Below are positions 5,994 to 45,061 of a stretch of 64,000 nt of DNA, piece after piece; position 1 is the first letter of the stretch, and each line of letters opens with the position of its first letter. The translations under genes were made by a program, and so were the position numbers. Below the pieces are notes generated by a model that made no database searches, had not been told where the DNA came from, and saw nothing but the letters and a program-made list of their open reading frames with translations. The DNA lies in assembly GCF_030013595.1 (NCBI RefSeq), contig NZ_CP122768.1; one strand, 5' to 3'. The DNA comes from Escherichia coli (GTDB lineage Bacteria > Pseudomonadota > Gammaproteobacteria > Enterobacterales > Enterobacteriaceae).

Positions 5994-6199
5994 ATATGCA
6001 ATAATTAATTGCACTGCCCCGCCAGCTATAATCGCGGGGCTTCGTTTTTCAGGGATAACAAAACCCGAAACTTCTTCCATCTGCCAGCAACAATGCCTCT
6101 TCCTCTATAGTGTTCTCCGGATCTACAGCATCCTGAAGTAGCGCGATGTACTCATTGGCTATCTGCATCAGAAAGTTAAAAACAATGTTTTTAACCTAT

Positions 6200-6228
6200 A
6201 AAAATGGCGCTTTATTTGCGCCATTTTT
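6200..6228. terminator. Bidirectional rho-independent terminator between convergent ykgJ and yagU
   Basis: Perfect inverted repeat aaaaatggcgc / gcgccattttt with 6 nt loop, flanked by A/T runs on both strands. Confidence 0.55.
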
Positions 6229-6241
6229 ATCATTCAATGCA

Positions 6242-23530: not shown

Positions 23531-23800
23531 TTATTGCCTGAGAATTCCCTCACTGGCGAGATACGGATTTAGCTGTTTTCCGGCATCAGGTTCAAAATTC
23601 CAGTACCGCCAGCGCAACTGACCTTCAGCATTACGGATAACCAGCCGGAAATGCGTTCCCTGGTCATCTTCAATAAGCACATTGCGGTAAGCTGTTGTGA
23701 CGGCAACCGCCTGTTCGCGTGAGAAAGGGCCTTCGGGTAATAAACGTGATGTACAACCCGGCATATCTGTTGCTCCCTGAAAGTAAAAGGCCCCGGTCAT
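23531..23800 (-). CDS. Small hypothetical protein downstream of antigen 43
   Basis: 89 aa ORF, no recognised domain; coding potential judged only by length and context. Confidence 0.4.
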
Positions 23801-23834
23801 GATGACCGGGGCCTGAAGGGGAGTGACCTGATTA

Positions 23835-33613: not shown

Positions 33614-33650
33614 TGAAGTGACACACTGAATTTGGCCACCTGTTCTGAGG
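33614..33650 (+). repeat. IS3-family (IS911-like) terminal inverted-repeat-like sequence abutting the stop codon of the T5orf172 gene
   Basis: TGAAGTGACACACTGAATTTGGCCACC starts one base after the TAG stop; shares TGAAGTG...GGCCACC termini with the IR at 33838-33864. Confidence 0.5.
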
Positions 33651-33837
33651 TGAGTATATCACCTCAGAACAGCACAGGAATAAAAGATACTGATTTGAAT
33701 GTGCCTATACTTTGTGATGTGAGGATCAATGAATAGTAACCTGATCAAGATATGTTACCGTGGTGAGACTGGTGAAAGTGGTGAAAGTGATCTAAGAACA
33801 TTGATACTTGGTGAGATTCTATATATCTCACTATGAA

Positions 33838-34426: not shown

Positions 34427-36191
34427 ATATCACGAACGGTGCAATAGTGGTTCTTCCGCAACTTGGGTGGAAGAAAATGGATGAAACTTTCTGGTGAACA
34501 AGGATCTAAGCTGTTTTAAGTTATGGGCAACGCAATGCACTCTCTTAAGACACTTCTACAGTTACCTTGCGGATGGCGATGCAGTCGACAAATTATTAGC
34601 TCTGACGGTATCACCCTCCATCTCCACGGAAAACGCAAAACAGCACAATGTCCTGAATGCTCTAAGCGTAGCGACTCTGTTCATAGTTCTCGTCGGCGCC
34701 GGATACAGCATCTACCCTGCTCCGGGCAGACGCTATGGCTTGTATTTTCCGTCCGCCACTGGTACTGCCGTAACCCGGCTTGTTCACGTAAAATTTTTGC
34801 CGAGTCGCTTGCTCCCTTCGCCGGTTCACACCAGCAGTCTTCACAGGCGTTACAAAATTTACAACGTCAACTGGGATTAATAGCTGGAGGTGAGGCTGGA
34901 AAACGGGCTGCAACGGCAGCGGGTCTCCGTTGCAGTGCTGATACTCTTCTTCGCAGGGTTATCAATACCCCGGAGACGAAACAGTCAGGCGCGCCTCATG
35001 TCGGTATTGATGAGTGGGCGTGGCATCGGGGCCACTGCTGCGGTATGTTAATAGTCAATCTTGATACTCACCGTCCCCTCGTCCTGCTTCCCGGCCGTGA
35101 TCAGCGTACGCTGGCGACCTGGTTCAGAAAATATCCGGAAATACAGGTTGTCTCGCGTGATCGCAGTGGAGTCTATGCGACAGCAGCACGTGAAGGTGCA
35201 CCTCAGGCCAGACAGGTGGCCGATCGATGGCACCTGCTAAAAAATATTGGTGATGAGCCTGAACGAATGATGTACAGACATATACCTCTGATACGTCTTG
35301 TTGCCAGTGAGTTGTCACCAAAGAAATCACCTGAGCCAGAACTGTCTGTGCCTGCAGCATCGCTCCGTCGTCCGGAACGCCTTAAACAGCAAACCCGCAA
35401 AAAACGGCATCAGCGTTGGACAGAGGTTATGGCCCTGCATAACAAGGGATGTAGTTTCAGGGAAATATCCCGTATTACAGGCCTGTCGCGTGTGACAGTC
35501 AGTCGCTGAGTACGTTCAGGAACATTCCCTGAAATGTCAACCCGACCTCCAAAGCGAGGGCTTTTGGACCCATGGAGGGAGTGGTTAAAAGAGCAACGAG
35601 AAAGTGGGAATTATAACGCCAGCCGGATAATGGCGGGAAATGGTGGTCCGGGGGTTTACAGGCAGTGAAACCATTGTCAGGGATACTGTTGCCAAATGGC
35701 GTAAAGGCTGGATCCCACCGGTTACTACTGCCGTCAGACTTCCTTCAGTGTCCCGGGTAAGGCGCTGGTTGATGCCCTGGAGAATAATCAGGGATGAAGA
35801 AAATTATGCTTCCCGATTTATTAGTCTGATGTGTGAAAAAGAACCGGAGCTGAAAATAGCGCAGCAACTGGTACTCGAGTTCTACCGTATTCTGAAAACC
35901 CAAAATAAATCACAGCTTAGCAGCTGGTTCACTCGAGTCCACGAAAGCGGTTCAGCAGAACTTCGGCGCGTGGCTGCGGGGATGGAAGCTGATGCTGCGG
36001 CTATATGTGAGGCAATCAGCAGTCGCTGGAGTAATGGTGTTGTCGAAGGTCATGTAAATCGCCTGAAGATGTTGAAACGCCAGATGTATGGTCGAGCCGG
36101 ATTTGAACTGCTCAGGCAGAGGGTCATGAGTCCACTGGCATGAAAATCTCCACCCAAGTTGCGGAAGAACCACTTTTCATCCGTCGTTGAC
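34427..36191 (+). mobile_element. ISL3-family insertion sequence nested in IS66 tnpA
   Basis: Perfect 23 bp terminal inverted repeats ggttcttccgcaacttgggtgga (34449-34471) and tccacccaagttgcggaagaacc (36149-36171), extending imperfectly outward; removing 34427-36196 restores the IS66 tnpA frame. Confidence 0.75.
34523..36143 (+). pseudogene. ISL3-family transposase, disrupted by an in-frame stop and a frameshift
   Basis: Two ORFs (34523-35509 and 35640-36143); N-terminal zinc-finger-like HLHGKRKTAQCPECS and C-terminal WSNGVVEGHVNRLKMLKRQMYGRAGFELLRQRV typical of ISL3 transposases; TGA at 35507-35509 followed by a frame change. Confidence 0.75.
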
Positions 36192-36498: not shown

Positions 36499-36840
36499 AT
36501 GATAAATCTTCCCGCAGGCACAAAAATCTGGCTGGTTGCCGGTATCACCGATATGCGCAACGGCTTCAATGGTCTCGCCGCAAAGGTGCAGACAGCGTTG
36601 AAAGATGACCCGATGTCCGGCCACGTCTTCATCTTCCGGGGCCGCAGCGGCAGTCAGGTCAAACTGCTGTGGTCCACCGGCGACGGACTGTGCCTGCTGA
36701 CCAAAAGGCTGGAGCGTGGCCGCTTCGCCTGGCCGTCGACCCGCGATGGCAAAGTGTTCCTGACGCCGGCGCAGCTGGCGATGCTGATGGAAGGTATCGA
36801 CTGGCGACAGCCAAAGCGGTTACTGACGTCCCTGACATGT
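36499..36840 (+). CDS. tnpB: IS66-family TnpB (orf2)
   Basis: MINLPAGTKIWLVAGITDMRNGFNGLAAKVQTALKDDPMSGHVFIFRGRSGSQVKLLW...GIDWRQPKR matches IS66 orf2; ATGA overlap with preceding tnpA frame; 3' end merges into the truncation junction. Confidence 0.7.
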
Positions 36841-37684
36841 TGTAGCCCAGGTCTTCTTCGTTGATAAAGTTCACATCCAGAGGATGGATACTTCCTGTAG
36901 CCCGTAATATCGTCGGTTCAATATCCTGCACATTCATCGGGATCACCGATGCAAGAAAAGCCCATTGATCAGAATAAGGCTGGAAATTAATATCAACAAA
37001 AACGCTTCCCCCCGATGCACGCGGTCTTTTTTGCAGAGGTAACGCGATAAGATTACCAAATCCTCCTTTTGGCATAGTATCCTGATTAGGAAATAATCGG
37101 TCATAAGAACTCAATTGCAGCTGTCGGGTCCGGCTGCACGTATAGCTAATAATAGCAGTCCCCAGACGGCGAGCTTCGCGGGCCGAAACTCGTGAAGCAA
37201 AAAATATCCAGACATGCGCTCCCTGACGTGAGCGGGATATTTCCAGCGCAGCAGGTACACTCAGCTCATCACAGGCTCGCATGAACGCGGATGCATCCTT
37301 CTGCCATTCAGCTTTATCAAAATCAACAGCCAGAAAATAACAGGAATCATCTTCCAGCAACGGATATAACCCGGCAGTATGCGTGCCTGCCAGATGCTGG
37401 TAGATGACAAGATCAGATACAGGGAGTAACTGACGGTGCGTACAGTCCCCGCATTTTATCCGGGGTTTACCGCATATTCTCGCCTGCCATTCGTTAGCGC
37501 AGGCAGGAGAGTACCCTGATTTGCCGCTGGTTTTACTTTCCCAACGAAGGGCCCATATATCATCACGCCCACGAAACAACCGACGAAATAATGCAACCTT
37601 CTCGTCGGTGGATAATACGGAAACGCGCTGCACAGGGCTCGGCGGTTTACGTCGCCATTCCAAGTAATGAGACCAGACGGGCAT
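36841..37684 (-). pseudogene. Archaeo-eukaryotic primase (AEP / Prim-Pol)-like gene, 3'-truncated by the IS66 remnant
   Basis: N-terminal LFRRLFRGRDDIWALRWE, DxD motif FLAVDFDK, GAHVWIFF and GGFGNLIALP motifs; the last third of the listed 341 aa ORF is antisense IS66 tnpB sequence. Confidence 0.6.
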
Positions 37685-37887
37685 TTTCTGCCCTCAATGC
37701 AGCTAATTCATCGCTGTCAGATTTATGAACCATATTCGTTACCTGTATCCGATCCACTGAGGCACCACGGCAGAAATTCGGGTCCCCTACACTGATGACA
37801 AAGCGCCCCGCCCTCTTCTGCCTATTAACTCAAGCACCTCCCAACAACTTACAGAAACTTAATTCTAATACCTAATACAGCTGTAAT

Positions 37888-38451
37888 TCAGTTGTGTCGT
37901 GGTCGGCCCCGGTTACTTTTTTCGGGAAGCCTGCTACGGCCCAGAATAATACCGTGTTCTTTCTGATCCTGTTTAGCCAGGTAGCTGAGGGCGTAACGTA
38001 AGTCGTCTACCGCGGACTTATCACTATAGTGAATCACGTGATCGATACGCACCGGGTATTTATCTTTAGCCCGGCACAGATGAAAATAACCATCCCCTTC
38101 CGTGATCCGCCTCCAGATATCTCCCAGTTGCCTGGATATCTGATAAGAGTTCTTGTGACGTTGTCCATCCAGGTAGCCGATAAAATGAATATGAAGCCCT
38201 TTGTCTGGTGTATATTCCATAACCCAGTAATATCCTGCCAACATCGTTTGGTTTTCGCTAAGTAAACGGTATATTTCCATACACATACTGTGCTTACAGG
38301 AATGCCCGAAACTGGGCGTGTATTTCCTGTAGGCAAAATCAATTCTGAAAGGTAACAGTTTAGAAAAACGTTGAAACAGACCTTCCATGTGTTCATTCAC
38401 ATCTTTCAGAATCGCGAAATTCATTTCGTAATTGGGATTGGCATTATACAT
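37888..38451 (-). CDS. YagK/YfjJ-family (inovirus Gp2-like) protein
   Basis: 187 aa; recalled family resemblance and conserved position next to DUF3987/alpA in CP4-like islands. Confidence 0.65.
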   Translation of the reverse strand: MYNANPNYEMNFAILKDVNEHMEGLFQRFSKLLPFRIDFAYRKYTPSFGHSCKHSMCMEIYRLLSENQTMLAGYYWVMEYTPDKGLHIHFIGYLDGQRHKNSYQISRQLGDIWRRITEGDGYFHLCRAKDKYPVRIDHVIHYSDKSAVDDLRYALSYLAKQDQKEHGIILGRSRLPEKSNRGRPRHN

Positions 38452-38581
38452 TTTATAGTCCTTACTTTATAAAATTCACAGGAAGAGGGAATTACGTAAA
38501 TACTGAGAGTACATAAACGCCGTACCACGGCATTAATAAACGAGGTAACCAGCAGTACAGACAACCTGATAAAACTGTTTG

Positions 38582-38609
38582 GTATTACCTCATTACAATG
38601 AGGTAATAC
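38582..38609. promoter_or_regulatory. Perfect 13 bp palindrome (gtattacctcatt ac aatgaggtaatac) upstream of the YagK-like gene
   Basis: Exact inverted repeat with 2 bp spacer, about 130 bp upstream of the start codon inside a roughly 970 bp AT-rich non-coding region. Confidence 0.35.
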
Positions 38610-39423
38610 TTCAGAATACAGTGAGGCTCTCTTAAACAGAGGACTAGTAAGAATTACAATGGCAAAAACACACCTCATAGAATTAAGTTTAAGGAAGTAC
38701 CATTCAATCACTTACAGGAAGTAATCTGATCTTCACAAAAGTCAGCTATCGAATAGCCACAGGCAACATCGCTATTAATATTGCCGTACCATTAAGTAAA
38801 AACAGGGACTCTGCAGAGAGAGCCTACAGATATTTAACCTCACAATAAGAAGATTATTTTATACAGAAAATATTATATTTACCCATACTTATAAACTGTA
38901 ATGGAGCTATAACATACGAACTAAAGACAATATACTCTAATAGTGTTCTGGTACGTAACTAGTGTTAAATACAAACCAGACATACATTCAGTGGATTAAC
39001 TATCTCAATATTACGCTATGAGCGTAGTAACATAATTTACACATAACTAAACCCCATACACCTCCACACTGTAGTATATGGGATAGACGCATTACGCACA
39101 TACAGAATACTCAGCATAACATAAAGAGGAGTGACATTACGATAAAAAGAGACAACATAACAGATAACATAACTCCCATTAATAATACTAATTAACCTAA
39201 ATTATTTATTGAATACGAAAACAATGAAGGCCCCACCTCACCTCAGACTAAAGCCGACAATATCCTGAGCAACAGGATATCCAATAGTAAATAGTGGTTA
39301 CACCAGTTATATTTACTGACTGACCTGTACCAGAGTTTTCTAATACAACGCTGACATGGTAAAGGCATTAGTCTCCTCCGCAAGTAGCAGAGGAGACTAT
39401 ATGTTAGTCAACGATTAAGTTGT

Positions 39424-40874
39424 TCAGAGGTCAAAGTTAGGTGCGACACACAACGTTTTTCCCTCAATAACCGGTACAACTCTGTTTTGTTCATACAGTA
39501 AATCCAGTAACCAGTTGATTTTATCCTTTTTCCGGAAACGGTTCGGACCACGCTGTAAAATGTCATTTTTTTTCATACAGAGGATCCCCTTCTCAATGCA
39601 ATAGCTTTTTATCCAGTTGAAAAGTTCAAGCTCCTCTGGAATGAGTCGCACAGGTACGGTCAGGGCAGGGTTGTCAAAAGTTAACGGATTAGACAACCGC
39701 ACATACTCATTACCGTACCATATTGCTAATTCTCTCGCCATTTCTGCAATGTAAGGGGAAATCTCCCCCTCCTCACCGCTCGAATGGTAAATAAGTCCTG
39801 CCAGTCTTGCCATATACTCTGCATTTTTAGCAGCATATTCCCGGCAATGTCTTAAAGGCCCCAATCCCCCCAGCTTCGATTCCACATCATTGTAATAATC
39901 CGTCCAGATTCTGGCAGCCTGAGGAGAAAAGTGAAGGCAACGTCGTTCACCACTCATCGCCAGACTTTCATCAATAAGCTCATTGATCCTCTGTTCAAAC
40001 AAATCCTGATACTGTGATGAATAATTATCTCCGGTTATTATCCTTGTCCCCTGCGTTGATGTTGGTTGACACATCAAAAACCTTGCATGATGTCCTGACG
40101 TTTTCACAAGTTCTTTTTTTCGCGTACAAAAACCTTTGTGGTAAACATCAGGCTGAATCATCGCCGACATCGTCAGTCTTGGCTCCTTCAAATTAATTCC
40201 GGGAGATGATTTCCTGTCGATGAAAAGAGAACCTCCATCCCACAAAGTGTTAATAATTCCCAGTTTACTCATGGCCCGGCTGTCAAAAATTCCCCCCCTT
40301 CACTGGATACAAGAGCAAAAGAACGATTGCTATCGGAGTAATATTTTAACATTCCCTCTATCGTTGTCTCATTAAAAATTGTTCGACGTATCTGCGGCGG
40401 AACAGGAGACTTATTCAGATGCGTTTCAAGCTCTGATTCTGTTGCCTTGTAATCTTTACCGGCACGAATCTCTTTATGAAATTTTGATTCCAGCGCTTTT
40501 TGTTTTTGCTCCCATATTTCCTTTTCTGTGCTGTAATTCTCAACCAGTTTCGCGTATTCTTCCGCCAGGGCTTCATCCCTGAGATAAAATGCTTTCATAA
40601 ACACTTTATCCACGGTCGTTTTCCTTTCACCAGAATCAGCCAGAATCAGAGAGTAAAGATTAACAGGCCCACGTAAATTTCCAGGTCTGCACACGTCAAT
40701 CTGATTCTGACAGGCAATTGAGATCGCTGTTAATGCGGATGTCGCCACCATAGCCAAAGGTGCCTGTGTATTTTTTTGAGTTTCAATTATTGCATTTCTC
40801 ACCAGCGGTGGTAGTGCATATATCGGATAAGGATTTTCTGGTGCAAGTAAGCACATAAAAGCCTCTCTTTTCAT
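39424..40874 (-). pseudogene. YfjI-like DUF3987 protein gene split by a frameshift in a C7/G7 homopolymer
   Basis: Two ORFs (40874-40269, 201 aa; 40272-39424, 282 aa) in adjacent frames; both frames are open across the C7 run at 40292-40298 and one extra C would fuse them into about 483 aa. Confidence 0.6.
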
Positions 40875-42355: not shown

Positions 42356-43954
42356 ATGGTAACTCGGACAATGCAACAAAAGTATCAGTATGATCGTGTT
42401 TTATCCGGCGAACTCCACCCATTCCCTGGCATATACGAGGCGGTTTCCGAACAAATCCTTTTGCTCATTTTTAAAGCACGTCAACTATATCAGGATCCAG
42501 AATATCGCCCCTGGTTTGAAGAACAGCACAGAGTACTCTCTGCATTACGTGCCAATACAGAGCTCCTGAGAATCTTTAGAGAACAAAGAAGCGCTGAAGA
42601 ACCAAAGCTTACTATTGAAGAGTCTACCTCCCCCCAACCCACTCCTTCTGCTCTTACAGATGCGCTTAATGTGATGTGCCATTTATACAATGGTTTTGAT
42701 GAAGGAAATATCAGTCTGAAAACTTGGGGGGCGATGCAAGAGGTACAGACAACATCAACCTTTATCAGCCCAGGACCGAGAACCTGGAAAACACCTGAAC
42801 TGGCAAAGTTTGTAGGAGATGATTTATTTAATATTCTGACTGAATGTAAGGCCTGGAGTTCACCAATTCCAGCAGAAACCCGACAGGGGTATTGCCATCA
42901 GGATCTGTCTGTTGCACACTCCTGCACCTCAGAGTTACTGGCACACCTGAATCAATATCATGAAATTGATGAATCAGCAATACTTGCCAGAGTTATTGGT
43001 ATAACAGTTAACGGATTCTACAAGAAAAATAATACAGACCTTCCAGAATGGCTATCCCCCTTTAAAGAGGAACATAAAATATTCAGAGATTGTCCGGAGC
43101 AAAATACCGGGGATGTAATCAGACGGAAAGAACAACTGTTGAAAACAGGACGTACAGAATTCGTGAATAATTTGTGTCGGGTCGCCAACTGGTATGAAAT
43201 TGAGTCAATATACGATGAATACGTCCGTCTTTATGCCAATGAAATCATTGACTGGTTCAACAAAACCATGAAGTATTTTAAACCAACAGATTTTATCCGA
43301 TATACATGGAAATTCGCAACAGTTACTCCGGATAAAGATACAGAAACCGGGCATACAACTGCATGGGAAAAGGATTATTGCCAGATAACCATACAACGTG
43401 ATGAACTTCTGAGGTTGATTCACACCAATACCCTTCAGGATGCAGTAATTTATCTTTGTCATTGTCTACAGAAGGAATACAAGAAATCATCCCAAAATGA
43501 GATAGAGTTCCCAGGAATAAAACCTCCGACATCAGAGAGTAAAATTAATATAACAAATAATATTAAATTTCATTCTCTCCTGGAGCTCAGTAAAGATAAT
43601 GAGAAGCGTCTGGAAACATTTCAAAAATGGTATGAAAAAAATAAAGTTTTGTTAGAAAGTCATAAACAAAAACGAACAGAGAAGATTGACGTTGCCGTAC
43701 GACTTGTAGGGCTGAAAGCCTATGATCTGCATGAAGGGATTCCGGATAGTCCAAAACGAAAAGTTAAAGATGGCATAAATGAAGACATCAAAGCCGATAC
43801 CAGTTTACGCCTGTCAAAGACAAATATAAGTGATACGTCGCTAAACCGTTATCGCCGCACTGTTAAGGAGATTATCAATAACGAAATTGACGCATTCCTG
43901 TTGGAACAGAAGAAAAAAATAAAAGATTTCCCTACAGTGAAGATAGAGATGTGA
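42356..43954 (+). CDS. Hypothetical protein, 532 aa, no recognisable domain
   Basis: Long uninterrupted ORF in an AT-rich segment; no Walker, nuclease or HTH motif found by eye; start codon uncertain, no clear SD. Confidence 0.55.
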   Translation: MVTRTMQQKYQYDRVLSGELHPFPGIYEAVSEQILLLIFKARQLYQDPEYRPWFEEQHRVLSALRANTELLRIFREQRSAEEPKLTIEESTSPQPTPSALTDALNVMCHLYNGFDEGNISLKTWGAMQEVQTTSTFISPGPRTWKTPELAKFVGDDLFNILTECKAWSSPIPAETRQGYCHQDLSVAHSCTSELLAHLNQYHEIDESAILARVIGITVNGFYKKNNTDLPEWLSPFKEEHKIFRDCPEQNTGDVIRRKEQLLKTGRTEFVNNLCRVANWYEIESIYDEYVRLYANEIIDWFNKTMKYFKPTDFIRYTWKFATVTPDKDTETGHTTAWEKDYCQITIQRDELLRLIHTNTLQDAVIYLCHCLQKEYKKSSQNEIEFPGIKPPTSESKINITNNIKFHSLLELSKDNEKRLETFQKWYEKNKVLLESHKQKRTEKIDVAVRLVGLKAYDLHEGIPDSPKRKVKDGINEDIKADTSLRLSKTNISDTSLNRYRRTVKEIINNEIDAFLLEQKKKIKDFPTVKIEM

Positions 43955-44078: not shown

Positions 44079-44675
44079 TTATGCGGCTTTTCCATTAACA
44101 GATTCGGCCACAAGAACAACACCGTGTTTGTTTCGATCAGGATGTTCACTCCAGATTTCTGATTCAGGAATACTTTCCCCATCATAGCAGATCCGATCAC
44201 CATCAAACGGATAATACCGTGCGGAATCTGTATCTAAGATAAACACCTTAAGATTCGTTGAACGACGCGCTATATGCTGCCAGAGGGCTTTACCTCCTTC
44301 ATATTGCTCGTTATCACTTAATAGTATAACGCCTGCTTTTGTGGCTATTGTTTCATAAACAAACGTAGCAAGGCTAACATCACGTACAGCACCATCGACA
44401 ACAATCCCTTCAATCTGAGCAACGTCCTGTTCTTCCCAGAATTTCCGGACAAACACCCCTTCAAGCTGTGAACGACGCTGAAGCTCCAGAGTGGCAACAA
44501 CCTTATGGCGAATATCACCATCAATAACAGAAGGTGCAGCTTCGATTACCGCAGCGAACGGAGTCTTTGGATCCCAGATGATCTGGTAAAGCACACCCTG
44601 AATAGTTACTCCATCCAGTATCGAAAAACGACGAGCTACAGTAGCAGGGGAGTAAGACATTGGAATGACAGCCAT
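44079..44675 (-). CDS. Hypothetical protein, 198 aa
   Basis: ORF adjacent to thrW inside the island; no recognised motif. Confidence 0.5.
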   Translation of the reverse strand: MAVIPMSYSPATVARRFSILDGVTIQGVLYQIIWDPKTPFAAVIEAAPSVIDGDIRHKVVATLELQRRSQLEGVFVRKFWEEQDVAQIEGIVVDGAVRDVSLATFVYETIATKAGVILLSDNEQYEGGKALWQHIARRSTNLKVFILDTDSARYYPFDGDRICYDGESIPESEIWSEHPDRNKHGVVLVAESVNGKAA

Positions 44676-44975: not shown

Positions 44976-45031
44976 TTGATTTAAATGGTGCCGATAATAG
45001 GAGTCGAACCTACGACCTTCGCATTACGAAT
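44976..45031 (-). repeat. Island-junction direct repeat overlapping the 3' part of thrW
   Basis: 56 bp match to 16635-16690 with 2 mismatches. Confidence 0.85.
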
Positions 45032-45061
45032 GCGCTGCTCTACCAACTGAGCTATATCGGC
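44986..45061 (-). tRNA. thrW: tRNA-Thr (anticodon CGT)
   Basis: Reverse complement reads GCCGATATAGCTCAGTTGGTAGAGCAGCGCATTCGTAATGCGAAGGTCGTAGGTTCGACTCCTATTATCGGCACCA; 76 nt with CCA end, located next to proA. Confidence 0.95.

Follow-up and report, generated by a model that had tools for sequence, protein, structure and literature searches.

A conserved 19-nt box beside an HUH Rep-like gene marks a candidate control region in tRNA-linked islands of Escherichia coli

Introduction

What purpose does almost one kilobase of non-coding DNA serve between two genes of a recurrent chromosomal island? The question is raised by a 64 kb stretch of Escherichia coli DNA (contig NZ_CP122768.1, hereafter the window, to whose full length all coordinates refer), in which an island sits at thrW, with tRNA-Thr(CGU) adjoining at 44986-45061. 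Genes and gap are read here in the sense of the minus strand, on which all features lie unless stated otherwise, and the genes follow each other in the order AlpA-type helix-turn-helix gene, DUF3987 fragment, yfjI, gap, YagK/YfjJ-type gene (hereafter the Rep-like gene), and a gene resembling those of AEP-TOTE primases. The gap measures 972 bp (39423-38452), from the TGA stop of yfjI (39426-39424) to the start of the Rep-like gene. The module formed by alpA, yfjI, the gap and the Rep-like gene is the conserved backbone of a kind of island that more than one in four complete E. coli genomes possesses, and whose cargo includes defence systems (Zorya, TOTE) and virulence determinants.

An earlier annotation of this stretch (the original prediction) had singled out an exact palindrome in the gap, and proposed that the region could host a small RNA, an H-NS silencing platform or an operator. 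That emphasis is misplaced, as the strongly conserved element of the gap is a 19-nt box located about 600 bases away. We hold, with moderate confidence, that the gap is the control region, and possibly also the origin, of an HUH Rep-like gene in the backbone of a tRNA-linked island. The gap and its palindrome, as first noted, are ordinary; the box is a modestly interesting lead, which different genera keep letter for letter beside their Rep-like genes, in the midst of a kilobase that drifts. For YagK, YfjJ and the related proteins, all of unknown function, the box offers a precise DNA substrate and deletion target. If it were only a promoter, the gap would be an ordinary control region.

A composite gap

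Judged from its homologues, the gap is assembled from modules that have had different histories, and is not a single element. Of 5426 complete E. coli genomes searched by megablast, 1539 gave a match to it (632 with at least 80% coverage), and the order alpA, (DUF3987 fragment), yfjI, a gap of 0.8-1.0 kb, Rep-like gene and variable cargo recurs in many E. coli islands. The upstream gene is nevertheless exchangeable: it encodes an unrelated protein of 607-611 aa in some islands, and is a divergent yfjI in E. albertii. Where the upstream gene differs (loci L006, L007, L009 and L014 of our collection), homology extends from the Rep-like gene to just past the box (~39215) and then ends, so that 39221-39423 goes with yfjI, and the remainder with the Rep-like gene. 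This yfjI trailer (39221-39423) is present only where the upstream gene is yfjI. It shows 96-100% identity to most yfjI-linked copies and 89-91% in the two most divergent ones, and is unalignable (43-47%) in loci with another upstream gene, such as L006, L009 and L014.

The gap is non-coding, as had been claimed: no credible open reading frame (ORF), protein remnant or RefSeq gene was found in 38452-39423. The longest ORF touching it (96 aa, 38421-38711, GTG start) has no Pfam match, and its frame is broken by 1-4-nt indels in homologues. No remnant of a decayed gene was detected by tblastn with every ORF of the window and 98 Rep homologues, and the listed homologous E. coli records hold no RefSeq feature within the gap, save for a six-base overlap of the yfjI coding sequence in one record. 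A mobile insertion or miniature inverted-repeat transposable element was also considered and rejected: no second copy of the gap was found within the window, the nesting of its long-range inverted repeats is inconsistent, and the leader between box and Rep-like gene has no phage match and matches plasmids only in E. coli records, its spacer having no match in plasmids or phages outside E. coli.

A box that accompanies the Rep-like gene

The box, AGGTTAATTAGTATTATTA (also AGGTTAATTARTATTATTA), is AT-rich and lies at 39198-39180, where it forms the outer limit of the Rep-gene module. The window contains a single copy. All full-length Escherichia loci examined have the box without any change, and it is either exact or altered at 1-4 positions in loci of Erwinia, Yersinia, Citrobacter-like, Limnobaculum and metagenome origin. 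An unbiased estimate of this association comes from nine loci with enough upstream DNA that were found through their Rep-like protein, and hence were unselected for the box: it lies within 4 mismatches in seven of them and is degenerate in two, for Rep protein identities of 33-63%. A single mismatch is seen in Erwinia (Rep 59% identical to that of the window), Y. intermedia (41%, or 39% in the multiple alignment), a Citrobacter-like contig (53%) and the metagenome locus L023 (63%). Three mismatches occur in Y. enterocolitica (43%, or 42% in the multiple alignment) and Limnobaculum (37%, or 36%), four in L152 (44%), and the degenerate boxes are those of C. braakii (34%, or 33%) and Rouxiella (37%, or 36%).

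The converse search started from the box. When metagenome contigs and the already fetched loci were scanned for the exact 19-mer, and matches with at least 900 nt downstream were counted (n = 104), 74 were followed by a Rep-like ORF, always on the strand of the box. The remaining 30 look like chance occurrences for the most part, as the majority come from contigs of 15-40% GC whose flanks are unrelated.

The distance from box to ATG is usually ~135 nt: divergent lineages have 131-201 nt, the Escherichia type 538-785 nt, and three other lineages 248, 935 and 1130 nt. Only the box with ~10 flanking nt and the last ~60 nt before the ATG can be aligned between genera, and the Escherichia leader is therefore a lineage-specific expansion between two conserved ends. 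Third codon positions of the Rep-like gene, compared among 47 distinct Escherichia-type copies from genomes and metagenomes, served as a neutral proxy: pairwise identity is 0.91-0.94 in the box region versus 0.893 for the proxy.

The box sequence was not found in the literature searched, and appears to be undescribed. It was also considered as an autoregulatory site of AlpA, and this was discarded, since the best candidate upstream of the window alpA has 6-7 mismatches out of 19. The distant K-12 paralogues yagK (L008, 7084-7146 upstream) and yfjJ (L002, 8470-8500 upstream) lack the box. Upstream of yagK stands GTATTATATAATGG, a sequence similar to the box in its 3' half, with a perfect 10-bp inverted repeat (TACTCTTACT-13-AGTAAGAGTA) ~15 nt beyond, and upstream of yfjJ stands GATAGGTAATATATAGG.

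A probable HUH nuclease

Which protein does the box accompany? The Rep-like gene (38451-37888, YagK/YfjJ family) encodes 187 aa, annotated in RefSeq as 'inovirus-type Gp2 protein', with the motifs FRIDF, GLHIHF and YALSYLAK. Among 29 sequences, including K-12 YfjJ and YagK, R36, D38, E79, H87 and K160 never vary, and H89 and Y157 show a conservation of at least 90%; the protein thus carries both the metal-binding HUH motif (His, hydrophobic, His; GLHIHF, H87/H89) and the catalytic tyrosine motif YxxK (Y157-L-A-K160). Pfam matches (PF23343, PF11726) are weak and below cut-off. An AlphaFold2 model (pLDDT, the predicted local distance difference test, 89) finds its best fold matches in parvovirus NS1, adeno-associated virus (AAV) Rep and SIRV1 ORF119 nucleases, with modest scores and unrelated ferredoxin-like folds intermixed. 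The YagK/YfjJ-type protein is treated here as a probable HUH Rep-like nuclease. No useful literature on the function of YfjJ or YagK was found.

An AlpA gene is adjacent to the Rep-like gene in 11 of 12 loci, and the usual order outside Escherichia is box, rep, alpA. In Erwinia, Yersinia, Citrobacter, Limnobaculum and Rouxiella (L017, L021-L024, L149-L152), 349-1446 bp of non-coding DNA precede the Rep-like gene, and an AlpA gene stands beside almost all of these, most often immediately downstream. Scanning genome contigs with the Rep-like protein returned three close relatives only.

A bolder proposal, which we put forward tentatively and rather doubt, is that the box might be the nick site or origin of an uncharacterised family of small HUH endonucleases (the YagK/YfjJ relatives) in AlpA-bearing, tRNA-linked islands of Enterobacterales. 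Excised islands, or their cargo side, would then be replicated or mobilised by rolling-circle synthesis from the box, much as at the origins of circular Rep-encoding single-stranded DNA viruses, where variable repeats adjoin an invariant, AT-rich nonamer core, and the Escherichia leader would be a lineage-specific insulator that silences the nuclease.

The gene-proximal end of the leader

The other alignable end of the leader holds the ribosome-binding site (RBS) of the Rep-like gene, TAAGGA (38464-38459), together with an upstream CTTCCT element (38485-38480; whole feature 38459-38485) that pairs with the RBS in other genera. In the last 70 nt, the minimum-energy fold pairs the RBS with an upstream complement in 12 of 18 lineages, and the sequence of this complement differs by lineage (CUUCCUU/GAGGAAG, GUUCCU/AGGAAC, UCCUC/GAGGA, AUCCU.UCU/AGA.AGGAU and CCAUGAAU/AUUCAUGG). 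Because this RBS-occluding hairpin covaries across genera, the leader is probably an mRNA, and translation of the Rep-like gene would be gated in the relatives.

Control region, origin, or both?

The reading that we favour, a control region of the Rep-like gene that may also be its origin, can be laid out as follows. The yfjI message would end in a strong hairpin, and the box, with the short direct repeats next to it, would mark the start of the Rep module as a cis-acting site for the onset of module expression, and may double as the origin or nick site of the Rep-like nuclease. In Escherichia only, a fast-evolving leader or spacer of ~730 nt would part the box from its gene, read-through would be reduced or gated by two hairpins, the terminator-like one with its T-run and that of the palindrome, and the element near the RBS, which may occlude it in relatives, would pair only weakly. 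The anatomy of the gap, its pattern of conservation, the linkage of box and Rep-like gene and the HUH motifs are observed; a promoter or origin at the box, transcription of the leader, an effect of the hairpins on RNA and coating by H-NS are inferred.

Several observations weigh against this reading. No conserved -35 hexamer stands next to the box across the lineages compared, and consensus scans found no sense-strand sigma-70-like promoter in the gap of the window. The -10 that these scans place inside the box points away from the gene in the window and in Erwinia, and towards it in Y. intermedia. Identity of 19/19 across genera also exceeds what a promoter requires. At the gene-proximal end, only UCCU/AGGA (4 bp) can pair with the RBS of the window, a weak occlusion that is typical of the Escherichia type, so control at the RBS would be weak or lost in the window copy. 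Finally, there are the direct repeats beside the box. The repeat GTTATGTT is present twice at 39175-39150, directly downstream of the box in the sense direction, with a 12-nt period (Tandem Repeats Finder: period 12, 2.0 copies), and is followed by a partial third copy at 39124-39116; its k-mers are enriched, for example ATAACATA with 3 observed versus 0.18 expected. Other lineages have GTGGTAT (2-3 copies) or TTATGTT at the same position. The type of repeat tracks the 12 nt upstream of the box, and hence the upstream gene context rather than the Rep-like protein, a pattern more in keeping with an origin that serves the upstream gene than with a Rep site. No coevolution between the repeats and Rep was found: Rep proteins are as similar between repeat types (identity 0.94-0.96) as within them, and some loci of the A type share an identical Rep protein with loci of the C type. 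Classical iteron arrays were rejected as well, given that the repeat searches and Tandem Repeats Finder returned two-copy short repeats only.

The behaviour of the repeats is the main point in favour of another explanation, in which the gap is an origin for the upstream gene, of the type known from phage-inducible chromosomal islands (PICIs): the helicase-like YfjI would act as an initiator that binds iterons and melts the AT-rich box after yfjI. In E. coli PICIs such as EcCICFT073, the origin comes after alpA and pri-rep, and has iterons that surround AT-rich DNA (Fillol-Salom et al. 2018, PMC6092414). The gap occupies the same position, after an alpA-like helix-turn-helix gene and the DUF3987 gene yfjI, and short direct repeats abut its AT-rich box. 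The arrangement of these repeats differs, however, with a single set of 2-3 copies and none on the other (yfjI) side of the box, and the box does not travel with the initiator gene. Outside Escherichia it travels with the Rep-like gene, and in L017, L022, L024, L149, L151 and L152 the upstream neighbours are unrelated, lie on the opposite strand and include no adjacent DUF3987 gene. The proteins of 607-627 aa that replace YfjI in some islands, moreover, have no recognisable replication domain. We therefore consider a PICI-type origin unlikely. The box may act as promoter or operator, as origin for the nuclease or, less probably, as melting site of a YfjI origin.

A fast-evolving leader

The favoured control region still has to accommodate the ~730 nt of leader that, in Escherichia only, separate the box from the Rep-like gene. 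Is this DNA simply filler? Mean pairwise identity in the 47 copies is 0.973 at codon positions 1+2 of the Rep-like gene and only 0.858 over the whole leader, below the 0.893 of third positions. Together with many indels and the lack of any Rfam or protein match, this argues that most of the leader is unconstrained, with a few blocks above the neutral proxy. Identity falls to 0.69-0.90 in 39150-38810, with gap fractions up to 0.33, and the indel-rich, apparently unconstrained spacer at 38825-39149, restricted to Escherichia, lacks blocks of 100-250 bp in L005, L009, L012 and L013. Closer to the gene, the T-run block at 38808-38789 reaches 0.945, the highest value in the proximal leader, 38748-38629 lies at 0.89-0.94, and 38588-38529, which follows the palindrome hairpin on its 3' side in the sense direction, is the best-conserved block of the proximal leader, at 0.92-0.95.

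The gap would then be an inert AT-rich spacer, an acquired filler that is probably coated by H-NS and kept by shared ancestry, with palindrome and hairpins as by-products. The divergence of the leader, slightly faster than that of third positions, its indels and missing blocks, its Escherichia-specific interior, the palindrome centre (0.849 in the 20-nt block that contains it, below the neutral proxy) and the GC content of 35% are all in keeping with this. Conservation of the box, on the other hand, far exceeds what shared ancestry would give; the dyad is kept in 22 of 22 palindrome variants, the potential to form the terminator hairpin survives replacement of its stem in nearly all variants, several blocks reach 0.92-0.95, and non-coding upstream regions of 349-1446 bp recur beside the gene family in other genera. 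Taken together, these data render an inert spacer distinctly unlikely as an account of the whole gap.

Coating by H-NS does not depend on this explanation, and is plausible for an AT-rich gap in an island that was acquired horizontally. With 35.4% GC (64.6% A+T) versus 50.4% for the window, and a location in an island next to tRNA-Thr, the gap has the raised AT content expected of acquired DNA silenced by H-NS; its plus strand is composed of A 0.39, T 0.26, C 0.20 and G 0.16. The original description as A/T-tract rich holds for this overall composition and not for the tracts themselves, as A or T tracts of at least four bases occur at 10.3 per kb, which is the window average, and runs of at least six A/T bases number 22 versus 22.0 expected from dinucleotide shuffles.

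A stranded 96-bp fragment of the leader, 91% identical to 38723-38820 of the window, is present in E. coli PEC41 (L025, 2501-2596), where a truncated phage terminase gene flanks it on one side and an IS3 remnant on the other, and looks like a rearrangement scar.

Hairpins, antisense signals and the case for an RNA gene

A terminator-like element detected by consensus scan (38797-38824) consists of a hairpin with a 6-7 bp stem (38824-38807) followed by five T (38802-38798). By sequence it has the two parts of an intrinsic terminator, a GC-containing hairpin and then a U-run. The stem takes three unrelated sequences depending on the lineage; its hairpin potential is kept in nearly all variants, and the T-run is conserved. 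The sense RNA is the more stable one in 13 of 13 variants, an outcome that the G+U-rich sense strand favours in any case. Selection on a strand-specific RNA was accordingly set aside: three leader hairpins fold better in sense, but base composition alone produces this effect. An action of AlpA as a Q-like antiterminator on this terminator was also rejected, since only the name is shared, the AlpA-type gene here encoding ~75 aa. The AlpA of P. aeruginosa is a much larger protein, with DNA-contact residues up to position 142 and a G+C-rich binding element, GGGACG (PMC9371919).

On the plus strand, 38633-38660 matches a promoter consensus pointing away from the Rep-like gene, as TAAACA-16-TACAAT or TTAAAC-17-TACAAT. 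Its hexamers are near-invariant in 14 loci and the block identity is 0.91-0.92, which makes it a candidate antisense promoter. Could the leader then contain an independent RNA gene, either a sense RNA of ~370 nt from the box to the hairpin at ~38800, or an antisense RNA that starts from TTAAAC-17-TACAAT (38634-38660) and controls the Rep-like mRNA in the manner of the countertranscripts of plasmid rep genes? The hairpin with its conserved T-run and the conserved antisense hexamers agree with such a gene, as does the apparent gating of translation by leader structure in relatives, and the whole leader folds better than shuffled sequences. It does so on both strands alike (z = -3.7 and -3.6), however, which suggests inverted repeats at the DNA level rather than a strand-specific RNA. 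Promoter-like matches in the gap (6) do not exceed those in shuffles (5.2), and many strains lack parts of 39150-38825, the unconstrained stretch that would form the body of the sense RNA.

The covariance-model scan that had been suggested for the small RNA idea speaks against it too. Among Rfam matches listed to E = 10, none in 37500-40500 comes near its gathering score, the best in the gap being BsrC at 39211-39290, with 22 bits versus a gathering score of 38 bits (E = 0.76); SNORD65 is matched in the neighbouring gene (E = 2.9). With no Rfam family and the bulk of the gap conserved at or below the level of the neutral proxy, an RNA gene in its own right is improbable. In the favoured reading, the hairpins belong to a control region whose leader would be transcribed, and would act on the RNA.

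The palindrome

The palindrome reported at 38582-38609 is real: GTATTACCTCATT-AC-AATGAGGTAATAC is exact (13+2+13), and the start codon of the Rep-like gene follows ~130 nt downstream. When the gap was shuffled 300 times with its dinucleotides preserved, the maximum length of a perfect inverted repeat was 6.9 on average and 12 at most, so that 13 was reached in 0/300. The palindrome is one of four perfect inverted repeats of at least 13 bp in the window, the others being at 33640-33672, 23788-23814 and 6198-6230; their arms measure 13-14 bp and their loops 1-7 nt.

Its conservation in homologous islands is partial. Dyad symmetry persists in all 22 variants; 18 have an unchanged outer stem, TATTACC/GGTAATA, and each of the other four has a single substitution in it. 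The inner stem drifts and is compensated only sometimes, and the perfect 13-bp form is a derived minority state, found in 5 of 47 distinct sequences, that arose from a 3-4-nt central deletion. Neither strand folds better than the other. An operator at which a dimeric island-encoded regulator represses the Rep-like gene is thus highly improbable, despite the perfect dyad, the conserved half-sites and the position relative to the start codon, because half-site spacing varies by lineage (12, 15 or 16 nt) as it should not in a classical dimer operator, conservation of the centre falls short of that of third codon positions, the scans place no sense promoter across the palindrome, short-leader relatives lack it, and the sole DNA-binding protein nearby is the 75-aa AlpA-type one. 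The palindrome seems to be a lineage-specific hairpin, compatible with an RNA or single-stranded-DNA hairpin, or with a weakly selected structure.

The end of yfjI and the neighbouring genes

The yfjI gene (40874-39424) encodes a DUF3987, helicase-like protein, with Pfam DUF3987 matches on both halves (E = 4e-37 and 1e-41) and a PHROGs annotation as 'DNA helicase'. In the window it is made of two overlapping ORFs, 40874-40269 and 40272-39424, and one base of the AAAATT[A]CCCCCCC run near 40270 (40265-40275) is absent compared with the intact copies of L001 and L003. By this comparison, yfjI is a frameshift pseudogene in this strain.

A strong hairpin starts 25 nt past the yfjI stop, inside the trailer. 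It had been placed at 39373-39402, slightly off its actual position: the arms, of 13 nt each, lie at 39369-39381 and 39387-39399 (12/13 complementary, 5-nt loop, -25 kcal/mol as RNA). It is near-invariant in nine yfjI-linked copies, with one substitution in two of them, so that no covariation can be counted. No U-run follows it (39399-39369; the tail reads AAUGCCUUUACC) and the terminator scan is silent there, so that it does not have the hairpin plus U-run of an intrinsic terminator. It is a candidate 3' end or stability structure of the yfjI mRNA.

On the other side of the Rep-like gene, the window carries, at 36659-37684 (minus strand) and 34523-36143, a gene with an AEP-TOTE primase domain (PF22548, E = 7e-100), shortened by ISL3/IS66 remnants; its equivalent is intact, at 745 aa, in the IMG/VR contig L028 (10623-12860). 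No mention of 'TOTE conflict system' was found in the literature searched. This cargo slot is variable and often broken by insertion sequences (L001, L003-L007, L012-L017), and may hold a TOTE primase, a type I Zorya system, a ShET2-like enterotoxin (OI-122-type island), a group II intron reverse transcriptase, zinc-ribbon proteins or, in Erwinia, hsdMS. Between the AlpA-type gene and tRNA-Thr lie two ORFs of 532 aa (42356-43954, plus strand) and 198 aa (44079-44675, minus strand), neither of which has a Pfam or NCBIfam match, and no integrase gene is visible between tRNA-Thr and the island genes.

Comparison with known systems

How does this arrangement compare with better known ones? The PICI replication module shares with it alpA, a helicase-like DUF3987 gene and AT-rich non-coding DNA with short direct repeats, in the same host and in the same integrative type of island. 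It differs in that the AT-rich box described here follows the downstream HUH gene, and not the helicase gene, into other genera, and in that two iteron sets flank the AT-rich part of the PICI origin, as opposed to one small repeat set in the gap.

Filamentous phages of the Ff group have a large, hairpin-rich intergenic region upstream of gene II, which contains their replication signals. The gap likewise is long, hairpin-rich, non-coding DNA directly upstream of a gene annotated as 'inovirus-type Gp2', but there is no sequence similarity, the protein is a 187-aa HUH/YxxK one with sub-threshold Pfam matches, and the region is mostly unconstrained and belongs to a chromosomal island.

In plasmids such as pT181 and those of the IncFII/IncI groups, rep genes are controlled through attenuation or translational occlusion by leader hairpins and countertranscripts. 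The terminator-like hairpin, the RBS-occluding hairpin that covaries in relatives, and the conserved antisense promoter-like site recall these leaders. The leader in Escherichia differs from them by its much greater length and its largely unconstrained sequence, the RBS is occluded only weakly in the window, and a countertranscript is hypothetical here.

Rolling-circle origins served by HUH Rep proteins (in geminiviruses, circoviruses, and replicons of the phiX174 and pC194 types) combine an invariant nick sequence with lineage-specific repeats upstream of rep. The box contains TAGTATTAT or TAATATTAT, which would match the nonamers of circular Rep-encoding single-stranded DNA (CRESS) viruses at 8 of 9 positions. 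It differs from such origins in having no GC-rich stem around it, only a 5-bp A/T stem, in the absence of covariation between repeats and Rep, and in its distance of 538-785 nt from the gene in Escherichia. What it shares with them is a small protein with HUH motifs, and an extremely conserved, short, AT-rich sequence in fixed orientation that precedes the gene by ~135 nt in most lineages and is accompanied by variable repeats.

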